Positions 3,218 through 17,892 of a stretch of DNA of 64,000 nt are shown here, piece after piece (positions within the stretch are counted from its first letter, which is position 1; every line of letters starts with the position of its first letter). Source of the stretch: Shigella phage Sf17; the sequence record MF327004. One strand, 5' to 3'. The notes beneath the pieces are model-generated. The model ran no database searches, was not told the DNA's origin, and worked only from the letters and a program-made list of their open reading frames with translations. The position numbers were made by a program, and so were the translations under genes.

Positions 3218-3693
3218 ACTTTAATCTGATACTTTGAACGTTGGTAATCAACTGTGATATAACCATCATAACCTACCAACCATCTTCCACCACGACTGAA
3301 TACCGTGTCTAAATCTGCACTATTAATATCACCTTCAAAACCACAATCAGGAACTTCCCTCTCAATCTTGATAGTTGCTACTACCAAATCTGTATGAGTG
3401 TCTCTAATCATGTACACAGTGTTTGTTTTAATGGCACTTTCATGCTCTTGTTCACGTAAGTCATATGGTGCTAACAAGTCTTTATCGGCTTGTAAGTGAG
3501 ATTCTGAAAAAGCTGCATGAACCATGTAAGCTTCTGAACACTCCCAGATAAAGCTATGAAGAAGAACCTTTGCAGCATGTCTTGAACAACCAAATTCTGC
3601 AACGATATCTTTGTACATATCATCTTTAGTTCCGTTGTTAAGCAAAGCTTTACGCACTATATCTTTAACATTCTTCATCTTTCCAATCCTCAT
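3214..3693 (-). CDS. hypothetical protein (start trimmed from 3729 to limit overlap with upstream gene)
   Basis: ORF 3214-3729; internal ATGs at 3693 and 3678 each follow a GAG-rich ribosome-binding site. Confidence 0.4.
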   Translation of the reverse strand: MRIGKMKNVKDIVRKALLNNGTKDDMYKDIVAEFGCSRHAAKVLLHSFIWECSEAYMVHAAFSESHLQADKDLLAPYDLREQEHESAIKTNTVYMIRDTHTDLVVATIKIEREVPDCGFEGDINSADLDTVFSRGGRWLVGYDGYITVDYQRSKYQIKV

Positions 3694-11276: not shown

Positions 11277-12692
11277 ATGAGCGAATTATTTAAGCACTCG
11301 CATTTACATGCAGGTTTAACTGAAAATGGTGCTGTTAACCACACCTCTTCAATGTCTGCACTGGTAGATTTCTACAAAGCTGCTGGTTCAAGCAGAACAA
11401 ATGTAGAGGTTCTTCCAAACTTGTTTTACAAGGCAATGCGAGAAGATATTGATGTAGCAGTTCGAATCCTGTTACATATGCGAGATGCACGAGAAGGTAT
11501 GGGTGAGCGTAAAGCGTTCCGTTATACTCTTACTAAAGCAATCTCTGACGGGATTCTTGATGAGTTCCAAGTATTACGTATCATGGACAAGATTTCTGAT
11601 TTAGGTCGTTATGATGACTTTAAAATCTTTGTTGGTACACGTTACGAAACAGATGCTTTCAAGCATTTAGAATCGGCACTGTTAGACCCTGCAACATCGG
11701 CTCTGGCAGCAAAATGGTTACCACGAGTAAAATCACGACACATGCGTTTTGTTCGTCGTTTCTGTAAGTTTGCAAATCTTTCAGAGAAGCAGTATCGAGT
11801 TCTTCTGTCAGCACTGTCTGACACTGTTGAACAAAAGATTTCAGCAAATGAGTTCGGAGAGATTGATTACAGCAAGCTTCCTTCACTGGCTGCTGCACGT
11901 TATCAAAAACTCTTCAGTCGTAAAGATGGTGAGCGTTATGCAGCATACATTGCAGCACTGACTAAAGGTGAGACAAAGATTAATGCTGGTGCAGTCTACC
12001 CTTATGACATTACAAAGTCAGTCGGTTATGGTAATGCAACCGTTGCAAATGAGCAGTGGAAAGCTTTACCAAACTGGATGAAAGAGGGTGAGAACATTCT
12101 GTGCATGGCAGATGTATCTTCATCTATGACTTGGGAGCGACATGGTTCTGTTACAGCGCTAGACATTGGTGTATCTTTAGCCCTGTACGTTTCAGAACGT
12201 AATACAGGTTGCTTTAAAGATGAATTGATGGTTTACTCTAGCAGACCTCACTTCATCACATTGAGTGGTGATTTACAGACTCGCTTACGTCAAGTGAAGA
12301 GTCATGTAGAGTATGGTTCAACTGACCTACAAGCTGCTTTTGCAAGAATCCTTGAGATTGGTGTTAAAAACAACTTGACTCAGAAAGAGATGCCTAGTAA
12401 GCTTATCATCTTCTCTGATATGCAGTTTAATCAGGTTGATGGAGCAGATGGTCGTACTAACTTTGAAGCAATTCAAGAAAAGTACAAGAAAGCTGGATAT
12501 GAGATGCCACAACTGGTATTCTGGTACTTAGCAAACCGTAACGGTACTTGCGAAGTGTCTGTAAAGGATAACGGTGTAGCGATGGTATCTGGTTTCTCTC
12601 CAGCCACTTTAAAAGCTTTGCTTGGTGGTGAGAAGTTTGACCCTATCAGCGTAATGCTCAAAGCAGTAATGGTTGAACGCTACGATTGGTAA
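11277..12692 (+). CDS. von Willebrand factor A (vWA) domain protein with MIDAS motif; N-terminal ~270 aa unassigned (possibly TROVE/Ro60-like, unverified)
   Basis: DxSxS motif in CMADVSSSMTWERHG followed by vWA-like alternation of hydrophobic strands; 471-aa ORF. Confidence 0.55.
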   Translation: MSELFKHSHLHAGLTENGAVNHTSSMSALVDFYKAAGSSRTNVEVLPNLFYKAMREDIDVAVRILLHMRDAREGMGERKAFRYTLTKAISDGILDEFQVLRIMDKISDLGRYDDFKIFVGTRYETDAFKHLESALLDPATSALAAKWLPRVKSRHMRFVRRFCKFANLSEKQYRVLLSALSDTVEQKISANEFGEIDYSKLPSLAAARYQKLFSRKDGERYAAYIAALTKGETKINAGAVYPYDITKSVGYGNATVANEQWKALPNWMKEGENILCMADVSSSMTWERHGSVTALDIGVSLALYVSERNTGCFKDELMVYSSRPHFITLSGDLQTRLRQVKSHVEYGSTDLQAAFARILEIGVKNNLTQKEMPSKLIIFSDMQFNQVDGADGRTNFEAIQEKYKKAGYEMPQLVFWYLANRNGTCEVSVKDNGVAMVSGFSPATLKALLGGEKFDPISVMLKAVMVERYDW

Positions 12693-12857: not shown

Positions 12858-12937
12858 CTCCGTTTAGCTCAGTTTGGTTTAGCAGCACTTGCTTTGGGAG
12901 CAAGGGGTCGAAGGTTCAAATCCTTCAACGGAGACCA
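12858..12937 (+). tRNA. tRNA-Pro (anticodon TGG)
   Basis: Manual fold: acceptor CTCCGTT/AACGGAG, anticodon loop tt-TGG-ga, T-arm GAAGGTTCAAATCCTTC, encoded CCA. Confidence 0.55.
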
Positions 12938-12944
12938 AATTATA

Positions 12945-13020
12945 TTCCCGTAGACAAATTAGGTAAAGTCAACACCCTTTCAAGGTGTGGTTTGAGGGTT
13001 CAAGTCCCTTCGGGAATGCC
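12945..13020 (+). tRNA. tRNA-Glu (anticodon TTC)
   Basis: Acceptor ATTCCCG/CGGGAAT, anticodon stem ACACC/GGTGT with loop ct-TTC-aa, T-loop TTCAAGT, CCA. Confidence 0.6.
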
Positions 13021-13027
13021 AGTTTTG

Positions 13028-13100
13028 ACAGAAGACCAATTACAGCAAACAAACTTTTCAATTTCGCGCATAGAAATCCAAAAAAGATTTGGTCTGGTCA
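13028..13100 (+). repeat. structured repeat element R1 (candidate small RNA, not a tRNA)
   Basis: Conserved 5-prime cAGAAGACCaaTTACAGCAAACA and 3-prime tttGGTCTGGTca ends that can pair (AGACCAA/TTGGTCT); AT-rich interior. Confidence 0.45.
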
Positions 13101-13108
13101 TTAAGAAT

Positions 13109-13185
13109 TGCGGGTATAGAGAAAGGGTGTCTCACATGTCTCATTAGCATGTTATCGGTAGGTTCGACTCCTACACCCGCCTCCA
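13109..13185 (+). tRNA. tRNA-Met (anticodon CAT)
   Basis: Acceptor with 6 bp plus terminal mismatch, anticodon loop ct-CAT-ta, T-arm GTAGGTTCGACTCCTAC, CCA. Confidence 0.45.
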
Positions 13186-13190
13186 AATTT

Positions 13191-13260
13191 ACAGAAGGCC
13201 GTTTACAGCAAACACTTAAAATTTTTTATAGGCAAAAAATGAAAAGATACGGTCTGGTAA
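13191..13260 (+). repeat. structured repeat element R2
   Basis: Same conserved ends as R1 (cagaaGGCCGTttacagcaaaca ... atACGGTCTGGTaat). Confidence 0.45.
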
Positions 13261-13269
13261 TACTAACAT

Positions 13270-13346
13270 GGTTAGGAAGCACATAAGGCATGTGCGGTCG
13301 GCTGTTAACCGAATGGTACAGGGTTCGAATCCCTGACTAACCGCCA
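13270..13346 (+). tRNA. tRNA-Asn (anticodon GTT), unusual D-arm
   Basis: Anticodon loop ct-GTT-aa, T-arm CAGGGTTCGAATCCCTG, acceptor ACTAACC-G-CCA; D-region forms 5-bp hairpin GCACAtaaggcaTGTGC. Confidence 0.45.
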
Positions 13347-13410
13347 AGATTTGGGAGAGAAGCGATTGCTCACCGATTTGTAAGGTGCAAGTCCTTAGCC
13401 TGAATAGAAT
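13347..13410 (+). other. tRNA-like fragment (T-arm-like AAGGTGCAAGTCCTT without acceptor or CCA)
   Basis: Contains T-arm-like hairpin but no complementary acceptor strands were found. Confidence 0.25.
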
Positions 13411-13415
13411 AAAAT

Positions 13416-13503
13416 GCGTCGTTATCCCGTAGATGGAAGCGGTGGTGACTGTAAATCACTTGTCATTATGACTCGGGAGGTTCGACTCCTTCACGGCGCA
13501 CCA
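13416..13503 (+). tRNA. tRNA-Tyr (anticodon GTA), long variable arm
   Basis: Acceptor GCGTCGT/ACGGCGC, anticodon loop ct-GTA-aa, extra arm, T-arm GGAGGTTCGACTCCTTC, CCA. Confidence 0.5.
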
Positions 13504-13509
13504 AATAAA

Positions 13510-13586
13510 GGTTATGTAGTTTAACTGGTCAAAATACCTCCCTGTCACGGAGGATGATGAGGGTTCGAATCCCTTCGTAACCGCCA
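13510..13586 (+). tRNA. tRNA-Asp (anticodon GTC)
   Basis: Acceptor GGTTATG/CGTAACC, anticodon stem CCTCC/GGAGG with loop ct-GTC-ac, T-arm GAGGGTTCGAATCCCTT, CCA. Confidence 0.55.
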
Positions 13587-13616
13587 AATTTGAGAGGGCT
13601 TTTTAGCCCCTCCCTT

Positions 13617-13648
13617 AAAGAGTTCTTACGAGTATTCTTTAAAGGAGC
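13617..13648 (+). repeat. palindromic spacer element cttaaagaGTTCTTACGAGtattctttaaagg
   Basis: Related copies at 14541-14570 and 16778-16805. Confidence 0.4.
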
Positions 13649-13724
13649 AGAAGACCAAATACAGCAAGCAATTTTAATATTTCAAGCCAATTTAATTTGA
13701 AAAATTTAAAACTTGGTCTGGTTC
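13647..13724 (+). repeat. structured repeat element R3
   Basis: gcAGAAGACCAAatacagcaagca ... acttGGTCTGGTtcc. Confidence 0.45.
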
Positions 13725-13734
13725 CAACAATTTT

Positions 13735-13865
13735 ACAGAAGACCGTTTACAGCAAACAATAAACAATCTATTTCTCTGGTAAAGAAAAGGCGAAGGTTCG
13801 ATTCCTTCACACGTTACGGCGTGTTGGTGTAATGGAAGCACTTAAGATAAATACGGTCTGGTAAT
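13735..13865 (+). repeat. structured repeat element R4 (long variant containing a tRNA T-arm-like hairpin GAAGGTTCGATTCCTTC)
   Basis: Same conserved ends (cagaAGACCGTttacagcaaaca ... atACGGTCTGGTaat); ~110-nt interior includes a perfect T-arm mimic and hairpin ACACGttacggCGTGT. Confidence 0.45.
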
Positions 13866-13868
13866 CCT

Positions 13869-14001
13869 CTTTGCAGTGACTTATGGAGCTAACCAGTCGT
13901 CCCATGAGTGCCGAAGAGTCTCTTGAGCATGATTCTAGATTAGCTTACTAAGAGATGACTCTACAAACCCTTTAGCAAGGTTTGCGTAGGTTACTGCAAA
14001 G
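13869..14001 (+). ncRNA. candidate structured small RNA S1 (closed by 9-bp helix CTTTGCAGT/ACTGCAAAG)
   Basis: Terminal 9-bp inverted repeat about 115 nt apart plus internal hairpins (GAGTCTCTT...AAGAGAtGACTC; CAAACCctttagcaaGGTTTG); no ORF, no tRNA fold. Confidence 0.35.
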
Positions 14002-14011
14002 ATGATTTAAT

Positions 14012-14087
14012 GGAAGTGTAGCAGAATGGTGATGCGGCAGACTTTTAATCTGACAGGCGACGGGTTCGAATCCCTCCACTTCTACCA
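14012..14087 (+). tRNA. tRNA-Lys (anticodon TTT)
   Basis: Acceptor GGAAGTG/CACTTCT, anticodon loop ct-TTT-aa, T-loop TTCGAAT, CCA. Confidence 0.5.
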
Positions 14088-14092
14088 AATTC

Positions 14093-14159
14093 GCCCCTTA
14101 ACTGAAGAACACATGCGCGGCTGGAAACACCCACTCAATCATTTCTCTACAAAGGGGCA
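14093..14159 (+). other. hairpin-bounded spacer element (GCCCCTT ... AAGGGGC, ~55-nt interior)
   Basis: 7-bp inverted repeat enclosing a non-tRNA sequence. Confidence 0.3.
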
Positions 14160-14168
14160 ACTTATAAT

Positions 14169-14245
14169 GGTTCAGTCGCAGATAAGGTAATGCAAGGGTT
14201 TCATAAGCCCTATGAATGTGGGTTCGATTCCCACCTGAACCTCCA
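14169..14245 (+). tRNA. tRNA with anticodon CAT (Met, initiator or Ile2-type)
   Basis: Acceptor GGTTCAG/CTGAACC, anticodon loop tt-CAT-aa, T-arm GTGGGTTCGATTCCCAC, CCA. Confidence 0.55.
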
Positions 14246-14247
14246 AT

Positions 14248-14323
14248 GCTGGTATAGTTAAGAAGGTTATAACACTCCCCTGATAAGGGAATATCGGTGG
14301 TTCGATTCCACCTACCAGTACCA
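14248..14323 (+). tRNA. tRNA-Ile (anticodon GAT)
   Basis: Acceptor GCTGGTA/TACCAGT, anticodon loop ct-GAT-aa, T-arm GGTGGTTCGATTCCACC, CCA. Confidence 0.6.
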
Positions 14324-14337
14324 AATTTCATAAAGTT

Positions 14338-14367
14338 GTTGACATTAAGATGTGACCACTTTAAGAT
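14338..14367 (+). promoter_or_regulatory. putative internal sigma70-like promoter within the tRNA array
   Basis: TTGACA 14338-14343, 18-bp spacer, TAAGAT 14362-14367. Confidence 0.4.
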
Positions 14368-14571
14368 AACCTTAGTTTTCGTTAGCGTAGCGTCTATTTT
14401 AAAAACTTAAAAATAAATGCAAACGATAATGTTTTTCTGGCAGTAGCTTAATAGGCTAAACACCAGCAGGGTATTCCAACCCCCTGTTAAAGAATTTGGC
14501 GTACTAGCCCACGGTATGATTAATAAAGTGGGCATCTTTAAGGGTTTTCTAAGAGAGCCTTTAAAGATAAT

Positions 14572-14648
14572 GCACCCTTAGTTCAAACGGATAGAGCAAC
14601 GGTCTTCTAAACCGTCAGTTACAGGTTCGAATCCTGTAGGGTGTGCCA
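14572..14648 (+). tRNA. tRNA-Arg (anticodon TCT)
   Basis: Acceptor GCACCCT/AGGGTGT, D-arm TAGTTCAAACGGATAGAGC, anticodon loop ct-TCT-aa, T-arm CAGGTTCGAATCCTG, CCA. Confidence 0.6.
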
Positions 14649-14656
14649 ATTTTAAT

Positions 14657-14777
14657 GGTCAAGACAACACGAGTAAGTTATCTTGGATACGCGTTAAGAG
14701 ATAAACGAAAGTCGGATAGTTGCTGAAGGGTAGCTCCCTTTAATAGTAAGTAGGTTCGACTCCTACCTTGACTGCCA
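14657..14777 (+). other. tRNA-like element with T-arm and 3-prime CCA but ambiguous body (too long or missing anticodon arm)
   Basis: 3-prime GTAGGTTCGACTCCTAC-CTTGACT-G-CCA; candidate 5-prime acceptor at 14657 gives ~120 nt, at 14710 gives ~68 nt. Confidence 0.3.
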
Positions 14778-14942
14778 ATTAGTTAGCAGATTACTATGAC
14801 GACCTTTATGGGTCTCCGCATTGACTTGAAAGAGTCAATCTCATAAGGAGGTGGTCTGTATCTCATGTTTTCCAGAACATGTAAATAATCTGAGAAGAAG
14901 CTTGACAGTGTTGAGATAACAGGGTAAGCTTCGAAATATAGT

Positions 14943-15025
14943 ATGGGACGATGTTAAGACACTAAGGCATGTGCGTAAGCCTCCAAAACTTACTCAAAGG
15001 GGTTCGAATCCTCCGTCCCATGCCA
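14943..15025 (+). tRNA. tRNA, probably Trp (anticodon CCA) with mismatched closing pair
   Basis: Acceptor ATGGGAC/GTCCCAT, anticodon region GTAAGc-ctCCAaa-aCTTAC, T-loop TTCGAAT, CCA; D-region hairpin like the Asn tRNA. Confidence 0.4.
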
Positions 15026-15038
15026 AAGTCTTATTAGG

Positions 15039-15126
15039 GGTAGGTAGCGGCTAATGGAAGCCAAACTGTCTTGAAAACAGTTGCCATTGTAGAGATACGG
15101 TGAGGGTTCGACTCCTTTATCTACCG
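15039..15126 (+). tRNA. tRNA-Ser (anticodon TGA), long variable arm, no encoded CCA
   Basis: Acceptor GGTAGGT/ATCTACC, anticodon stem ACTGT/ACAGT loop ct-TGA-aa, long extra arm, T-loop TTCGACT. Confidence 0.55.
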
Positions 15127-15381
15127 CCTAATAAGATTTAAAGCTGAGACTATTTGTTCGAGCAAGTGTTTCAGGTTTCCTCTTCGTGTATTGGCGTACA
15201 CGGCACTGGTAAAGCACCTAGTAGGTGTCACGGAGAAGAGATAGTATCAAGCTCTCCAAAGGTTCTAGTCACCGGATTAAGCAAGACTATGCAAAGGCCA
15301 ATAGGTCTTTTTAGAGAATTGTTAAGGCATTTGATACCATTGTTGCTTTGGCGTCTTAGCAGTTCTCTACAAAGATTTAAT

Positions 15382-15458
15382 GCACCTATAGCCCAATTGG
15401 AAGAGGCAGCAGACTTAGAATCTGCTCAGTGTGAGTTCGAATCTCTCTAGGTGTACCA
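15382..15458 (+). tRNA. tRNA with anticodon TAG (Leu-type anticodon; short variable arm in manual fold)
   Basis: Acceptor GCACCTA/TAGGTGT, anticodon stem GCAGA/TCTGC loop ct-TAG-aa, T-loop TTCGAAT, CCA; 77 nt. Confidence 0.4.
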
Positions 15459-15465
15459 AATTAAT

Positions 15466-15541
15466 GCAGGTGTAGCAAAATGGTTATGCGGCTGACTCTT
15501 AATCAGTAAGACGATGGGTTCAATTCCCTCCACCTGTACCA
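15466..15541 (+). tRNA. tRNA, tentatively Lys (anticodon CTT)
   Basis: Acceptor GCAGGTG/CACCTGT, anticodon loop ct-CTT-aa, T-loop TTCAATT, CCA. Confidence 0.4.
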
Positions 15542-15547
15542 AACAAT

Positions 15548-15623
15548 GGGGATGTAGTTTACATGGTTAAAACATAAGTTTTGCAAACTTAAGTACAGGG
15601 TTCAATTCCCTGCTTCTCCACCA
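15548..15623 (+). tRNA. tRNA-Ala (anticodon TGC)
   Basis: Anticodon stem TAAGT/ACTTA loop tt-TGC-aa, T-arm CAGGGTTCAATTCCCTG, CCA. Confidence 0.55.
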
Positions 15624-15629
15624 ATTAGT

Positions 15630-15704
15630 GCATCCATAGTTTAAATGGGAAAATTACAGTCTTCCAAACTGAGGTTGAGGGTTCGATTCCCTCTGGATGC
15701 TCCA
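15630..15704 (+). tRNA. tRNA-Gly (anticodon TCC)
   Basis: Acceptor GCATCCA/TGGATGC, anticodon loop ct-TCC-aa, T-arm GAGGGTTCGATTCCCTC, CCA. Confidence 0.6.
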
Positions 15705-15710
15705 AATAAT

Positions 15711-15787
15711 GCTGCTTTCGTATAATTGGCTATTGCACATCCCTTGTAAGGATGGAGATGCAGGTTCGAGTCCTGTGAGCAGCACCA
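15711..15787 (+). tRNA. tRNA-Thr (anticodon TGT)
   Basis: Acceptor GCTGCTT/GAGCAGC, anticodon stem CATCC/GGATG loop ct-TGT-aa, T-loop TTCGAGT, CCA. Confidence 0.6.
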
Positions 15788-15792
15788 ATTTT

Positions 15793-15885
15793 GAGGTCAA
15801 GTGAAAGACCGCTTGAGTCAACTGAAGACCGTAACAAATTCCACGGAGTTGAGTTAGCGGCACAGCTTCAGACCTCTTCAAAGCT
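15793..15885 (+). ncRNA. candidate structured element S3 (nested inverted repeats GAGGTC...GACCTC and CTGAAG...CTTCAG)
   Basis: Non-tRNA spacer with nested helices; contains GAAGACCG word shared with R elements. Confidence 0.3.
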
Positions 15886-15892
15886 CGCTTAG

Positions 15893-15967
15893 TTTATATG
15901 GTAAAGCCCCATCCTTACAAGTTGGTGAAGAAGGTTCAAGTCCTTCAGCGAGTACCAAGTTCCAGTA
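15893..15967 (+). tRNA. tRNA-Val (anticodon TAC)
   Basis: Acceptor GCTCGCT/AGCGAGT, anticodon loop ct-TAC-aa, T-arm GAAGGTTCAAGTCCTTC, CCA. Confidence 0.55.
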
Positions 15968-15968
15968 T

Positions 15969-16046
15969 CCCAATTGGCAGAGGATGCAAGCTCAAACCTT
16001 GTATTAGTGACGGTTCGAATCCGTCTTGGAACACCAATTTTAGGAG
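15969..16046 (+). tRNA. tRNA with anticodon CAA (Leu-type anticodon; short variable arm in manual fold)
   Basis: Acceptor GTTCCAG/TTGGAAC, anticodon stem GCAAG/CTTGT loop ct-CAA-ac, T-arm GACGGTTCGAATCCGTC, CCA. Confidence 0.4.
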
Positions 16047-16052
16047 ATTCCT

Positions 16053-16265
16053 ATGAAGCCTTATGGTAGACATGGTAAAGTTGAAATTGCAAGTTGTGGC
16101 TGCTGTGCAGCACATGATGGTGAAGAAGATTATTACAAATGGCGTACAGACCATCGTAAACGCTTTCTCAGAAGAGATAAGAAGAGAGCTAGACAGGAAT
16201 CTCAAAAGGATATTGCAGAATTAGTTCAAATGGACAGAGCAGCAACCTACGAAGTTGTTAGTTAG
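16053..16265 (+). CDS. possible small basic protein (70 aa) whose 3-prime third overlaps tRNA-Arg; may be spurious
   Basis: AGGAGA ribosome-binding site 6 nt upstream of ATG; last ~17 codons lie inside tRNA-Arg(ACG). Confidence 0.25.
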   Translation: MKPYGRHGKVEIASCGCCAAHDGEEDYYKWRTDHRKRFLRRDKKRARQESQKDIAELVQMDRAATYEVVS

Positions 16266-16291
16266 GGGTTCGAATCCTCTATTCTGCACCA
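16215..16291 (+). tRNA. tRNA-Arg (anticodon ACG)
   Basis: Acceptor GCAGAAT/ATTCTGC, anticodon stem GCAAC/GTTGT loop ct-ACG-aa, T-loop TTCGAAT, CCA. Confidence 0.55.
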
Positions 16292-16309
16292 AATTTAATA
16301 GGTAACATT

Positions 16310-16537
16310 ATGTATAAACTCATAGTTGAAAAACATAAAGATGACCACAAGATTGAAACAGGTAGATTTGGAGATACTTTCTTTATAGCGGTTGGTTGGC
16401 AATGTGACCCGTTAGAAGTTAGAAAGATTGTTTATAACTTTGCTGGATTAGAACTTAAGCAAGCTATCTTCGAAACATCACTACCTGAAAATAAGGATAC
16501 TTGCAATAACGCATATATTCTTTCAAGAGTTCGTTAG
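16310..16537 (+). CDS. possible small protein (75 aa) between tRNA genes
   Basis: ORF fills the gap between two tRNAs; weak ribosome-binding site. Confidence 0.3.
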   Translation: MYKLIVEKHKDDHKIETGRFGDTFFIAVGWQCDPLEVRKIVYNFAGLELKQAIFETSLPENKDTCNNAYILSRVR

Positions 16538-16611
16538 GGGATTAGTTTACAAGGTTAAAACCTCGGTCTTTGAAATCGAAGAAGATGGTTCAATTCCATC
16601 ATCCCCCGCCA
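16536..16611 (+). tRNA. tRNA-Gln (anticodon TTG)
   Basis: Anticodon stem TCGGT/ATCGA loop ct-TTG-aa, T-arm GATGGTTCAATTCCATC, CCA; first acceptor pair mismatched. Confidence 0.5.
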
Positions 16612-16613
16612 AT

Positions 16614-16692
16614 GCTCCATTACTCCAATTGGCAGAGAGGCCAGATTTAAAATCTGTGTTATGTATCGGTTCGAATCCGATATGGAGTACCA
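16614..16692 (+). tRNA. tRNA with anticodon TAA (Leu-type anticodon; short variable arm in manual fold)
   Basis: Acceptor GCTCCAT/ATGGAGT, anticodon stem CCAGA/TCTGT loop tt-TAA-aa, T-arm ATCGGTTCGAATCCGAT, CCA. Confidence 0.4.
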
Positions 16693-16698
16693 AATATT

Positions 16699-16774
16699 AG
16701 CAGTATAGCATAACTGGCAATGCTCCAGCCTCTGAAGCTGAAAGATTAAGGTTCAAATCCTTATACTGCTGCCA
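16699..16774 (+). tRNA. tRNA-Gln (anticodon CTG)
   Basis: Acceptor AGCAGTA/TACTGCT, D-arm GCATaactggcaaTGC, anticodon loop ct-CTG-aa, T-arm TAAGGTTCAAATCCTTA, CCA. Confidence 0.55.
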
Positions 16775-16805
16775 CTTCTAAGGGTTCTTACGAGAGTCCT
16801 TAAAT

Positions 16806-16882
16806 GTGGCCTTATCATAAATGGATAATGACCCATGCTGTGAACATGGTCTATACGGGTTCGATTCCCGTAGGTCACCCCA
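16806..16882 (+). tRNA. tRNA-His (anticodon GTG)
   Basis: Acceptor GTGGCCT/AGGTCAC, anticodon stem CCATG/CATGG loop ct-GTG-aa, T-arm ACGGGTTCGATTCCCGT, CCA. Confidence 0.6.
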
Positions 16883-16888
16883 ATTTAA

Positions 16889-16966
16889 TAGCTCAATTAG
16901 CTTATATGGTTAAAGCGCGTGTCTGAAAAACATGAGAACAGGGTTCAAATCCCGATGGGCTACCAA
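16889..16966 (+). tRNA. tRNA, tentatively Phe (anticodon GAA); imperfect T-stem
   Basis: Acceptor TAGCTCA/TGGGCTA, D-stem GCTT/AAGC, anticodon loop ct-GAA-aa, T-loop TTCAAAT. Confidence 0.4.
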
Positions 16967-16981
16967 CTTTATAGGTGCATA

Positions 16982-17716
16982 ATGAAAGAGATGACAGAAC
17001 AAAGTAAAGAGATTTTTAATCTCCTTAAAGCTGGTAATGGTTTCTCAAACCCTCTTATTACTGGTGCAGCAGTTCTTGGTGGTACTATAGCTGCCTCTCA
17101 ATCATTAGTTAACTCAATTAGTTCTGTAACAGACCCAGCTACACAACAGATTTTAGTTGCTGCTGGACTGACAACAGCCTTATTAGGAAGCTTCACAACA
17201 AGCCTTGGAAGTACAACTTCAACGACAAGTACACTTACTGAGTATGGACAAAAGTCTGTAGATGAGTTTTCACAACGTATGCAAGTAGCCAAAGGTTACT
17301 CTAACGTTATGGGAGCAGCAGGTGAACAGGTTGGATGTACACCATTTAGCGGTATCATGGGCGTAGCTACCGAGTACGGTAATAAAGCGATGGATTTGAT
17401 TAATACCTCCATAGACGCTGTAAATGGCGTTCTAAGCGATTTGCAAGATGCAATCGACCAAGGACTAGATACAATCTCTGAACTCGCTACACAGGCCGTT
17501 ACAGCAATTAATGAGGGTATTGCAAAGATTACTGCATATGCTAATGAAGTAACTCAGATGATTGCAGATGAAGCAGCACTGATTGCAGAATACCTGAAAA
17601 CAAATATTAATGGTTTCCTTGCGAATGTTCTACCAAGCTGGTTTGATGATTCATGTAAAACTGGTGTGATTGATACTATCGCAACTCCAGAGATGAAAGA
17701 AGCTCTGAACAAATAA
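16982..17716 (+). CDS. hypothetical Ala/Thr/Ser-rich protein embedded in the tRNA array (start trimmed from 16919)
   Basis: ORF-track start at 16919 is a GTG inside the preceding tRNA; first ATG clear of the tRNA is 16982. Confidence 0.45.
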   Translation: MKEMTEQSKEIFNLLKAGNGFSNPLITGAAVLGGTIAASQSLVNSISSVTDPATQQILVAAGLTTALLGSFTTSLGSTTSTTSTLTEYGQKSVDEFSQRMQVAKGYSNVMGAAGEQVGCTPFSGIMGVATEYGNKAMDLINTSIDAVNGVLSDLQDAIDQGLDTISELATQAVTAINEGIAKITAYANEVTQMIADEAALIAEYLKTNINGFLANVLPSWFDDSCKTGVIDTIATPEMKEALNK

Positions 17717-17717
17717 T

Positions 17718-17810
17718 GGAAGATTAACCCTAAAAGGTAAGGGAGCAGTTTGCTAAACTGCCAGTAACCGAGAAATCGGCGTACCAGTTCAAGTCTGGTA
17801 TCTTCCTCCA
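17718..17810 (+). tRNA. tRNA-Ser (anticodon GCT), long variable arm
   Basis: Acceptor GGAAGAT/ATCTTCC, anticodon stem GCAGT/ACTGC loop tt-GCT-aa, extra arm, T-arm ACCAGTTCAAGTCTGGT, CCA. Confidence 0.6.
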
Positions 17811-17816
17811 AATTAT

Positions 17817-17892
17817 GTGTCGGTGTCAGAAATGGTTATGTGCCTGTCTGCAAAACAGGTTTATGAGGGTTCGAGTCCCTTCCGATACTCCA
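17817..17892 (+). tRNA. tRNA-Cys (anticodon GCA)
   Basis: Acceptor GTGTCGG/CCGATAC, anticodon stem CCTGT/ACAGG loop ct-GCA-aa, T-arm GAGGGTTCGAGTCCCTT, CCA. Confidence 0.6.

Follow-up and report, generated by a model that had tools for sequence, protein, structure and literature searches.

Short-armed type I tRNALeu genes in the tRNA cluster of a Felix O1-like phage, probable leucine carriers of an old lineage

A long extra arm is described in textbooks and in the primary literature as a hallmark of bacterial tRNALeu. Type I tRNALeu, which lacks this arm, has been studied experimentally in Streptomyces and was framed as a rare peculiarity of that genus, dependent on a special LeuRS (Fan, Huang, Ji & Wang, NAR 2019, PMC6614811). 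In S. coelicolor, LeuRS charges the type I tRNALeu(CAA) with leucine. E. coli LeuRS (EcLeuRS) failed on it, and was stated to be an enzyme that "only charges type II" (PMC6614811). The minimum length of the type I variable loop is 5 nt, including nucleotide 48 (PMC6614811). Bacterial LeuRS reads A73 and the corner formed by the D and T loops (U8:A14, A15:U48, G18G19, A20a) and ignores the anticodon and the extra arm (PMC9976931). As summarized in the same source, Larkin et al. 2002 found that E. coli LeuRS charges and edits tRNALeu without the variable and anticodon arms when A73 and the D/T-loop interactions are intact. Full-text literature searches found no mention of short-arm tRNALeu in phages, and the paper on the tRNAs of phage Sf14 never has the word "variable" (PMC12482277). 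Type I tRNALeu is a known, under-appreciated kind of tRNA, to which the phage genes described here add new members.

The sequence analyzed (the window) is a stretch of 64,000 nt from a Mooglevirus/Felix-O1-like phage. Coliphages resembling Felix O1, Moogle, and Sf13 are represented by hundreds of sequenced isolates, some of which are used in therapy and Salmonella typing. ARAGORN was run over the whole window with cloverleaves drawn, and candidates were scored with the Rfam tRNA model (RF00005, gathering score 29). The tRNA gene cluster (Table 1) is 99.2% identical to that of Shigella phage ESh20 and is matched by 302 Ounavirinae-type records.

Table 1. Coordinates of the tRNA cluster, the three type I tRNA-Leu genes, internal controls, and other elements in the window
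Feature	Coordinates	Strand	Length	Characteristics	Source
Phage tRNA gene cluster	12858..17892	+		26 tRNAs, 19 amino acids, Trp missing	ARAGORN
Type I tRNA-Leu, anticodon UAG	15382..15458	+	77 nt	Rfam tRNA 56.1 bits	ARAGORN; Rfam
Type I tRNA-Leu, anticodon CAA	15959..16036	+	78 nt	Rfam tRNA 44.0 bits	ARAGORN; Rfam
Type I tRNA-Leu, anticodon UAA	16614..16692	+	79 nt	Rfam tRNA 46.9 bits	ARAGORN; Rfam
tRNA-Tyr(GUA)	13416..13503	+	88 nt	Long extra arm kept; internal control	ARAGORN
tRNA-Ser(UGA)	15039..15128	+	90 nt	Long extra arm kept; internal control	ARAGORN
tRNA-Ser(GCU)	17718..17810	+	93 nt	Long extra arm kept; internal control	ARAGORN
Conserved spacer element	13347..13410	+		98% identical in Felix O1, vs 83% at aligned non-tRNA positions	
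Degenerate tRNA-like element	14655..14781	+		7-bp acceptor-like stem, T arm, GCCA 3' end	
Trp-like degenerate tRNA-like sequence	14938-15027				

All three Leu genes score above the Rfam gathering threshold. Their variable regions are TCAGT (5 nt), ATTAGT (6 nt), and GTTATGT (7 nt) for the UAG, CAA, and UAA species, respectively, and the ARAGORN folds contain no extra stem. Each gene has the type I shape, with a Leu anticodon and a loop of 5 nt or more containing nucleotide 48, and none has the variable region longer than 10 nt, with a stem of its own, that marks type II tRNALeu. The features of Ser and Tyr class II tRNAs (a long arm, a Ser or Tyr anticodon, and G73 for Ser) are also missing, as the loops are short, position 73 is A, and the anticodons are those of Leu. 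The first-pass annotation had described three short-armed tRNAs of 77–79 nt with Leu anticodons, which ARAGORN and Rfam bear out (variable loops of 5–7 nt). It placed the UAG and UAA genes correctly and the CAA gene 10 nt off, at 15969-16046. One of its two explanations was that the anticodons had been misread by hand, in which case automated folding would assign others or find long arms; ARAGORN did neither and yielded the identical three anticodons with short variable loops. A hidden long arm or a misassigned anticodon is ruled out by ARAGORN, Rfam, and RNAalifold. The five tRNALeu isoacceptor genes of the E. coli host are 85–87 nt in length. Because these and the Ser and Tyr tRNAs of the cluster have long arms, the shortness of the phage arms is real and specific to Leu.

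CCA is encoded in all three Leu genes. There are small irregularities, including G1.U72 in the UAG and UAA species, a U.U mismatch in the T stem of the UAG species, a C27.U43 mismatch at the top of the anticodon stem of the UAA species, A37 in the UAG species as opposed to the G37 (m1G37) of E. coli CUN-reading tRNALeu, and variable loops of 6–7 nt in two of the three genes compared to the 5 nt typical of the family. Stem mismatches of this kind in the UAG and UAA species, and the two degenerate tRNA-like neighbors in the cluster, are what might be expected if these were decaying tRNALeu pseudogenes that have lost the extra arm and are drifting. Such genes would lose pairing and conservation and change at the rate of the spacers, and the three Leu genes do none of these. 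The Leu(CAA) gene is 100% identical to its Felix O1 counterpart, whereas aligned non-tRNA positions are 83% identical, and it is at least 95% identical in about 247 phage records. The Leu(UAA) gene is at least 95% identical in 247 of the 260 matching phage records. Between the window and Felix O1, identity is 89% for tRNA genes and 83% for aligned spacers, and the alignable fractions are 97% and 79%. RNAalifold recovered a cloverleaf from 27 diverse family members, with double compensatory changes in 18 of its 21 pairs. Additionally, three type I Leu genes occur in Erwinia phage phiEa104, where the acceptor stems are altogether different, and in the Ounavirinae examined (the window, Felix O1, and phiEa104) the Leu genes are exclusively type I. 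Near-perfect conservation over hundreds of genomes in excess of spacers, abundant compensatory covariation, Rfam scores well over threshold, and the restriction of these three phages to type I Leu genes leave the decaying-gene reading strongly disfavored.

Other elements in the cluster are less regular. Two of them, at or near the positions of the conserved spacer element and the element with a GCCA end, had been called incomplete tRNA-like sequences. This description suits the second, in which ~85 nt occupy the place where the D and anticodon arms are expected (MFE fold z = -1.35). ARAGORN called a tRNA-Ala(agc) at 14699-14777 within it at the relaxed setting -ps80 only, and the element is absent from Felix O1. 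Annotated "tRNA-like stable RNAs" in the T5 tRNA region are comparable. For the conserved spacer element, no tRNA-like fold was obtained with Rfam, ARAGORN (including relaxed settings), or MFE folding (z = -1.29), and its interpretation as a tRNA fragment was rejected. A conserved small RNA resembling a tmRNA tag, without a tRNA-like domain, lies at 14372-14561, with ANDNVFLAVA as its candidate tag peptide.

A73, U8, A14, A15, G18G19, and a loop-final U (U48) are present in all three Leu genes. The D stem has 3 bp, and the 11-nt D loop, C-AAUUGG-(A/C)-AGA, matches the E. coli G-AAUUGG-U-AGA in length and register. All the sequence-level features of tRNALeu (a Leu anticodon, A73, U8:A14, A15:U48, G18G19/A20a, and the 11-nt D loop) occur in each of the three. 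Published tRNAscan-SE isotype models also place Leu at the top for the three Leu tRNAs of phage Sf14, with scores of 67.4, 49.1, and 60.2 (PMC12482277). The Sf14 cluster has 98.2% identity to the window over 92% of the cluster; Leu(CAA) is 100% identical in Sf14, and Leu(UAA) is 100% identical in the sister phage Sf13. The three tRNAs have a core signature of A9, C12-G23, and C13. We scanned for this signature by requiring the D-arm motif and the T loop while leaving the anticodon and the variable length free. In IMG/VR, the scan returned 122 motif tRNAs with a Leu anticodon in 116, and in 185,579 species genomes 120 of 122 had a Leu anticodon; every one was short-looped. A73 occurs in 136 of 136 unique well-parsed family sequences and U48 in 134. 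A cruder parser applied to the same loci gave A73 in 134 of 145 short Leu tRNAs, compared to 52% of non-Leu tRNAs. These features point to leucine identity for the three phage tRNAs, as judged from sequence.

The other explanation in the first-pass annotation, that these are atypical tRNAs with an identity that might not be the one their anticodons suggest, is right about the shape; on identity, the signature, A73 and core elements, and isotype models favor Leu. A switch in which another synthetase charges these tRNAs and Leu codons are recoded is highly improbable. The tRNAs are class I-shaped, and PheRS would be the obvious candidate for the UAA and CAA species, which differ from the Phe anticodon GAA at position 34 only and have A35, A36, and A73 in common with tRNAPhe. 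Non-Leu isotype scores in Sf14 are also appreciable (Ile2 65.7 and Lys 63.4 for the UAG species, Lys 54.2 for the UAA species), but Leu ranks first for all three (PMC12482277), and the D-arm signature is Leu-specific over 240 independent matches. G3:U70 (Ala) and the long arm (Ser) are absent, and synthetases that read the anticodon would not find their cognate anticodons here. In 41 long ORFs, TTA, TTG, and CTA together make up 49% of Leu codons; recoding them throughout the proteome would be very harmful, and no sign of it is seen in conserved phage proteins.

Family members are found in phages infecting Proteobacteria, Firmicutes, Actinobacteria, and Cyanobacteria. They also occur on chromosomes of Actinomycetota, where many of the members from the cellular scan are solitary genes. 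The tRNA-Leu(UAG) is 80% identical (59/74) to a chromosomal type I tRNALeu of Gordonia. The shared signature (A9, C12-G23, C13, AAUUGG-N-AGA) and a common fold in which 18 of 21 pairs covary suggest that the phage and bacterial type I genes are related by descent. Recent deletion of the arm from a host tRNALeu was rejected, as the core differs systematically at 9, 12-23, and 13 and the nearest relatives are other type I genes and not E. coli genes. A search of 5,426 E. coli genomes (28 Gb) found no similar sequence, although a query of 77 nt gives such a search limited sensitivity. The genes would belong to an old lineage that spread horizontally among phages of many bacterial phyla, tRNA arrays, and the chromosomal tRNALeu(UAA/CAA/UAG) of many Actinomycetota.

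A less biased IMG/VR viral sample contained 21 short and 44 long Leu tRNAs, compared to 0 of 37 short for Ser and 1 of 19 short for Tyr. Arm loss in these counts follows the requirements of the synthetases. Type I accounts for roughly one-third to one-half of the tRNALeu genes found within viral tRNA clusters. It is not the case that every phage tRNALeu is armless, given the 44 long forms in this sample and the 85-nt type II gene of T5. Some tRNAs that have lost the arm retain type II-like D arms, a sign that the loss may have happened independently several times.

We consider the three genes to be functional type I Leu isoacceptors, and likely elongators of the old type I lineage that are leucylated by the host (probability roughly 75%). 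With gene structure, conservation, covariation, distribution, and identity elements as observed, charging by the enterobacterial LeuRS and a role in translation are most likely. Each tRNA would fold as a normal cloverleaf with a 5–7-nt variable loop replacing the long extra arm, be leucylated by the LeuRS of E. coli, Shigella, or Citrobacter, and enter ordinary elongation. The host enzyme would be expected to accept them because A73 and the D/T-loop corner are kept and neither the anticodon nor the extra arm is read. The codons read would be UUA, UUG, and CUA(/CUG), and UUA, UUG, and CUA are far commoner in the phage, which has a GC content of 39%, than the CUG-biased usage of E. coli would supply. 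No phage-encoded LeuRS or other aminoacyl-tRNA synthetase was found among the 8 of 14 ORFs of ≥350 aa scanned in the window, which covers 64 kb of the ~88-kb genome. The only ORFs of 745–899 aa encode the tape-measure protein, a tail fiber, and a family A DNA polymerase, and the upstream "RNA-binding protein" had no match when its sequence was searched against the PDB.

The failure of EcLeuRS on the Streptomyces tRNA counts against host leucylation, as it is direct biochemical evidence and the only published cross-test (PMC6614811). This negative may not transfer to the phage tRNAs because the Streptomyces tRNA has C48 in place of U48 and an actinobacterial acceptor stem. The sub-optimal details listed above (A37, U.U, C27.U43, and the 6–7-nt loops) also count against it. 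The same biochemical result would fit tRNAs that are produced but not accepted by enterobacterial LeuRS, and that act as decoys or sponges for host toxins and nucleases directed at tRNAs, as regulators, or only in hosts with a LeuRS that accepts type I tRNALeu. The phage anticodon loops are unlike those of the host, nuclease evasion has been discussed for such tRNAs (PMC12482277), and clearly non-canonical tRNA-like RNAs are present in the same cluster. A decoy would not need the known E. coli LeuRS determinants, which are all conserved, with A73 invariant across the family. CCA is encoded, the anticodon loops are intact, the choice of anticodons suits phage codon usage, and the family extends over phages of four host phyla and includes a native chromosomal isoacceptor in Actinomycetota. 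We judge such non-substrate roles to be quite unlikely, and host-leucylated elongators remain the preferred reading.

Loss of the long arm from phage tRNALeu could be an adaptation and not neutral streamlining, although we regard this as doubtful. LeuRS would be the sole synthetase for class II tRNAs that tolerates arm loss. This tolerance could allow phage Leu-tRNAs to evade host enzymes that select long-armed class II tRNAs, such as abortive-infection toxins of the AbiEii/MenT nucleotidyltransferase type, whose choice of substrate relies on the long variable arm (PMC11541572; bioRxiv 10.64898/2026.01.19.700257). Leu decoding would then survive when host tRNALeu is disabled. The distribution of short arms (Leu often, Ser never, Tyr almost never) fits this idea without proving it.

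These genes indicate that in a very well-known group of coliphages all tRNALeu genes are type I and subject to strong purifying selection. If ordinary bacterial LeuRS does accept type I tRNAs with A73 and U48, the current view would be corrected and the design of orthogonal tRNAs simplified. If the tRNAs are not leucine carriers, abundant phage tRNAs must have some other task. The presence of type I genes also matters for annotation (isotype models and genes called "pseudo" or "undetermined") and for explanations of tRNA carriage by phages.

Compared to known systems, the phage tRNAs resemble type I tRNALeu of S. coelicolor, with a bacterial cloverleaf, a Leu anticodon, U8:A14, and a short loop (5 nt in Streptomyces). 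The Streptomyces loop ends in C48 and the phage loops in U48. A73 does not serve as an identity element in Streptomyces, where the leucine-specific domain of a specialized LeuRS is implicated (PMC6614811). S. coelicolor type I tRNALeu also shares its cell with type II tRNALeu, whereas the phage has three type I isoacceptors and no type II, and enterobacterial LeuRS must serve them. Chromosomal relatives in Actinobacteria have the same D-arm signature as the phage genes (U8-A9, C12-C13-AAUUGG-N-AGA-G23), and their identity to the UAG species reaches 80%. A mycobacterial tRNALeu(TAG) with a short variable loop belongs to a mobile tRNA array that has HNH endonuclease genes next to it (Behra et al. 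2019, PMC6582537), the setting also seen in Felix O1-like phages. That case is a passing mention in a bacterial genome and was not linked to phages, identity elements, or a wider family (PMC6582537).

The E. coli genes leuW (UAG), leuX (CAA), and leuZ (UAA) have the same anticodons, A73, U8:A14, A15, U48, and 3-bp D stem as the phage genes, along with an AAUUGG-N-AGA D loop of identical length and register, and G1.U72 also occurs in leuZ and leuU. They differ in the long extra arm (85–87 nt in total length), in the core (G9, G12-C23, and G/A13 in E. coli; A9, C12-G23, and C13 in the phage), and, for the UAG species, at position 37 (G37 in the host, A37 in the phage). Animal mitochondrial type I tRNALeu(UUR) also lacks a long arm, with identity residing mainly in A73 and A14 (PMC9976931), but it has a reduced, floppy D/T-loop core and a dedicated mitochondrial LeuRS, whereas the phage tRNAs have canonical G18G19 and T-loop elements. 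Among coliphages, T5 has a type II tRNALeu, so function in E. coli does not depend on the type I form. Notes in the T5 GenBank record describe amber-suppressor tests of the T5 tRNAs by replacement of their anticodons. The minimal constructs of Larkin et al. 2002, as described in PMC9976931, were artificial and derived from type II tRNA, while the phage tRNAs are natural type I molecules; that result would provide the mechanistic basis for their leucylation by the host LeuRS.

According to ARAGORN, the + strand from 12858 to 17892 carries 26 tRNA genes, including three tRNALeu genes with short variable regions. All three encode CCA, which is counted in their lengths, and the ARAGORN cloverleaves show no extra stem in any of the variable regions. 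The first-pass annotation had given these genes the anticodons TAG, CAA and TAA and short variable arms, with tRNA lengths of 77–79 nt. The anticodons are exact, and the short arms are upheld by both the cloverleaves and the Rfam tRNA model (gathering score, 29 bits). Its positions for the UAG and UAA genes were also exact, while the CAA gene had been set 10 nt too far right; its concern that the anticodons were misassigned was not borne out, as ARAGORN gives the same three. The short arm is real and Leu-specific, because the tRNASer pair (90 and 93 nt) and the tRNATyr (88 nt) of the same cluster keep long extra arms and the five tRNALeu isoacceptor genes of E. coli K-12 measure 85–87 nt. The whole cluster is 99.2% identical to that of Shigella phage ESh20, and essentially all of the 302 phage records that it matches belong to Ounavirinae (Felix O1, Moogle, Sf13, Sf14, and Erwinia Kolesnikviruses). 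The three genes are already labelled tRNA-Leu in GenBank records.

Short-armed tRNALeu genes and other RNA features of the cluster
Feature	Position	Strand	Details
tRNA-Leu(UAG)	15382-15458	+	ARAGORN; 77 nt; variable region TCAGT; Rfam tRNA 56.1 bits
tRNA-Leu(CAA)	15959-16036	+	ARAGORN; 78 nt; variable region ATTAGT; Rfam tRNA 44.0 bits
tRNA-Leu(UAA)	16614-16692	+	ARAGORN; 79 nt; variable region GTTATGT; Rfam tRNA 46.9 bits
Tag-like small RNA	14339-14561	+	promoter 14339-14367; RNA about 14372-14561; tag frame from 14418
Degenerate tRNATrp-like sequence	about 14938-15027		A1-U72, G73, CCA, T arm

Single-gene BLAST searches returned colinear matches, with no arm gap, to annotated tRNA-Leu genes of phages on many hosts (Mycobacterium, 131 records; Streptomyces, 60; Vibrio, 25; also Erwinia, Enterococcus, Lactobacillus, Cronobacter, Pantoea, Gordonia, and Prochlorococcus). 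The UAG, UAA, and CAA trio recurs in Lactobacillus phage Bacchae and a KVP40-like Vibrio phage, in which the Leu genes are 74–77 nt and the adjoining Ser and Tyr genes 87–90 and 86–88 nt. All these phage genes for type I (short-loop) tRNALeu share the D-arm string CCAATTGG-N-AGAG. An IMG/VR scan for this string followed by a T loop, with the anticodon free and a variable region of 4–34 nt, matched at least 120 contigs. Among the matches listed, 116 of 122 motif tRNAs have Leu anticodons (43 UAG, 34 CAA, 29 UAA, 6 AAG, 2 GAG, and 2 CAG), all short. The unique, well-parsed sequences among these listed matches (n = 136) have A73 without exception, a 5-nt loop in 124 cases and U as the last variable-loop base in 134; a cruder parser found A73 in 134 of 145 short Leu tRNAs at the same listed loci, compared with 52% of non-Leu tRNAs.

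Applied to one genome per bacterial species, the same motif retrieved at least 122 tRNAs, and among the matches listed 120 of 122 were Leu, all short. Many of the listed matches (L128–L247, genome-contig scan matches) are tRNALeu(UAA/CAA/UAG) genes that stand alone on the chromosomes of Actinomycetota, including Nocardia, Mycobacterium, Rhodococcus, Gordonia, Corynebacterium, Arthrobacter, Bifidobacterium, and Rothia; others form part of tRNA arrays in cyanobacteria, Planctomycetota, and myxobacteria. The solitary genes indicate that type I tRNALeu is spread far more widely among bacteria than in the "Streptomyces only" picture of Fan et al. 2019 (PMC6614811), from which the type is already known. 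The UAG species of the window is identical to a Gordonia chromosomal gene at 59 of 74 positions and to E. coli leuW at 50 of 74. Type I has the core A9, C12-G23, C13, whereas type II (long-armed) tRNALeu in the same viral contigs consistently has G9, G12-C23, G/A13. Behra et al. 2019 (PMC6582537) mentioned in passing a mycobacterial tRNA cluster with a short-loop tRNALeu(TAG), and a full-text literature search found no paper noting short-arm tRNALeu in phages.

A less biased sample of 119 newly fetched IMG/VR contigs was obtained with a generic T-arm/ACCA pattern as bait, leaving out the tRNAs that themselves matched it. It contained 44 long and 21 short tRNALeu (20 and 17 at loci with at least 10 tRNAs), and the arm was long in 37 of 37 tRNASer and 18 of 19 tRNATyr. 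These counts, together with the type II tRNALeu of T5 (85 nt), indicate that armless tRNALeu is frequent, not universal, in phages. A type II-like D arm persists in several of the sampled short Leu tRNAs, which suggests that the arm was lost more than once. Arm loss follows the tolerance of the cognate synthetases: the major identity element for SerRS is the size of the long arm (PMC9976931), and LeuRS can spare the arm. MenT3 and AbiEii, abortive-infection-type nucleotidyltransferase toxins, act preferentially on class II tRNAs, with the long arm serving as their anchor (PMC11541572; bioRxiv 10.64898/2026.01.19.700257). Armless Leu tRNAs would evade MenT3/AbiEii-like enzymes, a speculative explanation that fits the arm lengths seen in Leu, Ser, and Tyr tRNAs and that we consider improbable.

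The Leu(CAA) gene is 100% identical to that of Felix O1; identity of 95% or more is seen in 247 records for Leu(CAA) and in 247 of 260 records for Leu(UAA). In the alignment of the window with Felix O1, tRNA positions show 89% identity, with 97% alignable, compared with 83% and 79% for other positions. The CAA and UAA genes are 99–100% identical between the two phages, unlike the UAG gene, which is type I but completely different at the syntenic Felix O1 position (3500–3577 of sequence L249) and has thus been replaced within Ounavirinae. Erwinia phage phiEa104 has three type I genes (CAA, AAG, and UAA) with unrelated acceptor stems. RNAalifold analysis of 27 diverse members, among them the window's three and three actinobacterial genes, produced a cloverleaf with double compensatory changes in 18 of 21 pairs and a covariation term of −10.2 kcal/mol. 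Counts for each pair in the 136 sequences gave 4–6 pair types at most positions; only sequences with 17 or more of 20 pairs had been admitted to this set, which makes its pairing percentages partly circular and leaves its pair-type diversity unaffected.

Two incomplete tRNA-like elements had also been proposed from manual folding. The one at 14655–14781 is partly tRNA-like: it has an acceptor-like stem of 7 bp and a T arm, ends in GCCA, and contains about 85 nt where the D and anticodon arms would sit; ARAGORN recognizes a tRNA in part of it at a relaxed threshold only, and no counterpart was found in Felix O1. No tRNA-like fold was seen at 13347–13410, which is 98% conserved in Felix O1. The degenerate tRNATrp-like sequence has a 9-nt anticodon loop that includes CCA, is missed by ARAGORN at default settings, and is 85% conserved in Felix O1. 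A tRNATrp is otherwise missing from the cluster, and phiEa104 carries a normal tRNATrp.

An intergenic element occurs four times between tRNA genes (13021–13105, 13184–13265, 13640–13727, and 13727–13875), each copy bounded by ACAGAAGACC-NN-TTACAGCAAACA and NN-GGTCTGGT, with ends AGACC and GGTCT able to pair; all four are conserved in Felix O1. Within the fourth, 13770–13845 resembles a circularly permuted tRNA-like module, in the order T arm (GAAGGTTCGATTCCTTC), acceptor-type helix capped with a 4-nt loop (ACACGT-TACG-GCGTGT), and D-arm-like hairpin; the Rfam tRNA model gives 28.8 bits at 13742–13816, slightly below threshold. Small + strand ORFs at 16053–16210 and 16311–16535, each preceded by a Shine-Dalgarno-like sequence, also lie between tRNA genes; Felix O1 instead carries HNH endonuclease genes in several of the gaps between its tRNAs. 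Immediately upstream of the cluster, a 471-aa ORF (11277–12692, +) matches DUF2828, DUF7788, and PHROG 850 "RNA-binding protein," with no relative found by PDB sequence search. A DUF2828 protein also flanks a tRNA cluster in the unrelated Vibrio phage 1.081.O, and a tRNA- or small-RNA-linked role for the ORF is possible.

The tag-like small RNA is conserved, has a TTGACA-N17-TAAGAT promoter of its own, and encodes a tmRNA-like tag in the frame GCA AAC GAT AAT GTT TTT CTG GCA GTA GCT TAA TAG (ANDNVFLAVA and two stops). The frame is preserved through synonymous and stop-to-stop changes in Felix O1, Erwinia phiEa104, a Klebsiella Jedunavirus, Salmonella Akira, and the Ackermannviridae phage Menlow. 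BLAST matched the RNA in 629 phage records; among the matches listed, it is unannotated or falls under "hypothetical protein" calls. In 120 IMG/VR contigs, the tag has exactly 10 codons plus stop in 115, and codon 10 is always Ala, with all four Ala codons used. The stop codons form part of a helix, and the hairpins that come after it show compensatory changes. No tRNA-like domain was detectable in the RNA, and 66 of the 120 loci are without any tRNA. The Rfam tmRNA_permuted model gives 30.4 bits (gathering score, 47), essentially from the tag region, and such phages are missing from an exhaustive ssrA survey (PMC4131195). The RNA thus resembles a tmRNA message domain without a tRNA-like domain and seems to be of an undescribed kind; it may be more novel than the type I tRNALeu finding.

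E. coli LeuRS recognizes A73, U8:A14, and the Levitt pair A15:U48, and also reads D-loop G18G19, A20a, and D/T-loop contacts (Giege and Eriani review, PMC9976931), a list supported by the introductions of PMC2377443 and PMC6614811. According to the same review and introductions, the anticodon and long arm are unused, and tRNALeu variants without the long arm and anticodon arm stay active. All three phage Leu tRNAs have A73, U8, A14, A15, and a U-ending variable loop. Their 3-bp D stem closes an 11-nt loop, C-AAUUGG-(A/C)-AGA, equal in length and register to the E. coli tRNALeu D loop (G-AAUUGG-U-AGA), and two share G1.U72 with E. coli leuZ and leuU. The alternative raised in the first-pass annotation, an identity differing from the anticodon, is unsupported: these elements and the Sf14 isotype models favour Leu. 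Ala and Ser identities are ruled out by the absence of G3:U70 and of a long arm, respectively, from all three. Leu was the top tRNAscan-SE isotype for the three Leu species of Sf14 (67.4, 49.1, and 60.2) in a 2025 paper silent on the variable arm (PMC12482277). The Sf14 cluster is 98.2% identical to the window's across 92% of the cluster, and the two Leu(CAA) genes are 100% identical.

The window has a GC content of 39%, and Leu codons in its 41 long ORFs include 24% TTA, 17% TTG, and 8% CTA. CUG makes up about half of E. coli Leu codons. All three phage Leu tRNAs were classed as consistent with codon-usage compensation in the Sf14 paper (PMC12482277). No synthetase-sized ORF with an aaRS domain was found within the window, in a scan covering 8 of its 14 ORFs of at least 350 aa. 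Because the phage tRNAs hold the A73 and U48 needed by E. coli LeuRS, we consider that the host enzyme would likely charge them (probability about three in four).

Bacterial tRNALeu is described as almost all type II, and the only prokaryotic LeuRS known to charge both types as that of Streptomyces (PMC6614811). The S. coelicolor type I tRNALeu(CAA), with the 5-nt loop ACAGC, is charged by its own LeuRS, and E. coli LeuRS reportedly left Streptomyces type I tRNALeu uncharged (PMC6614811). This sole published cross-test of E. coli LeuRS on type I tRNALeu runs against charging of the phage tRNAs. The Streptomyces tRNA has C48, whereas the phage tRNAs have U48 together with A73, which is no identity element in Streptomyces (PMC6614811). 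The three genes are further members of a known, under-appreciated kind of tRNALeu, and their significance is that a classic coliphage group bears it though the host synthetase reportedly rejects such tRNAs.
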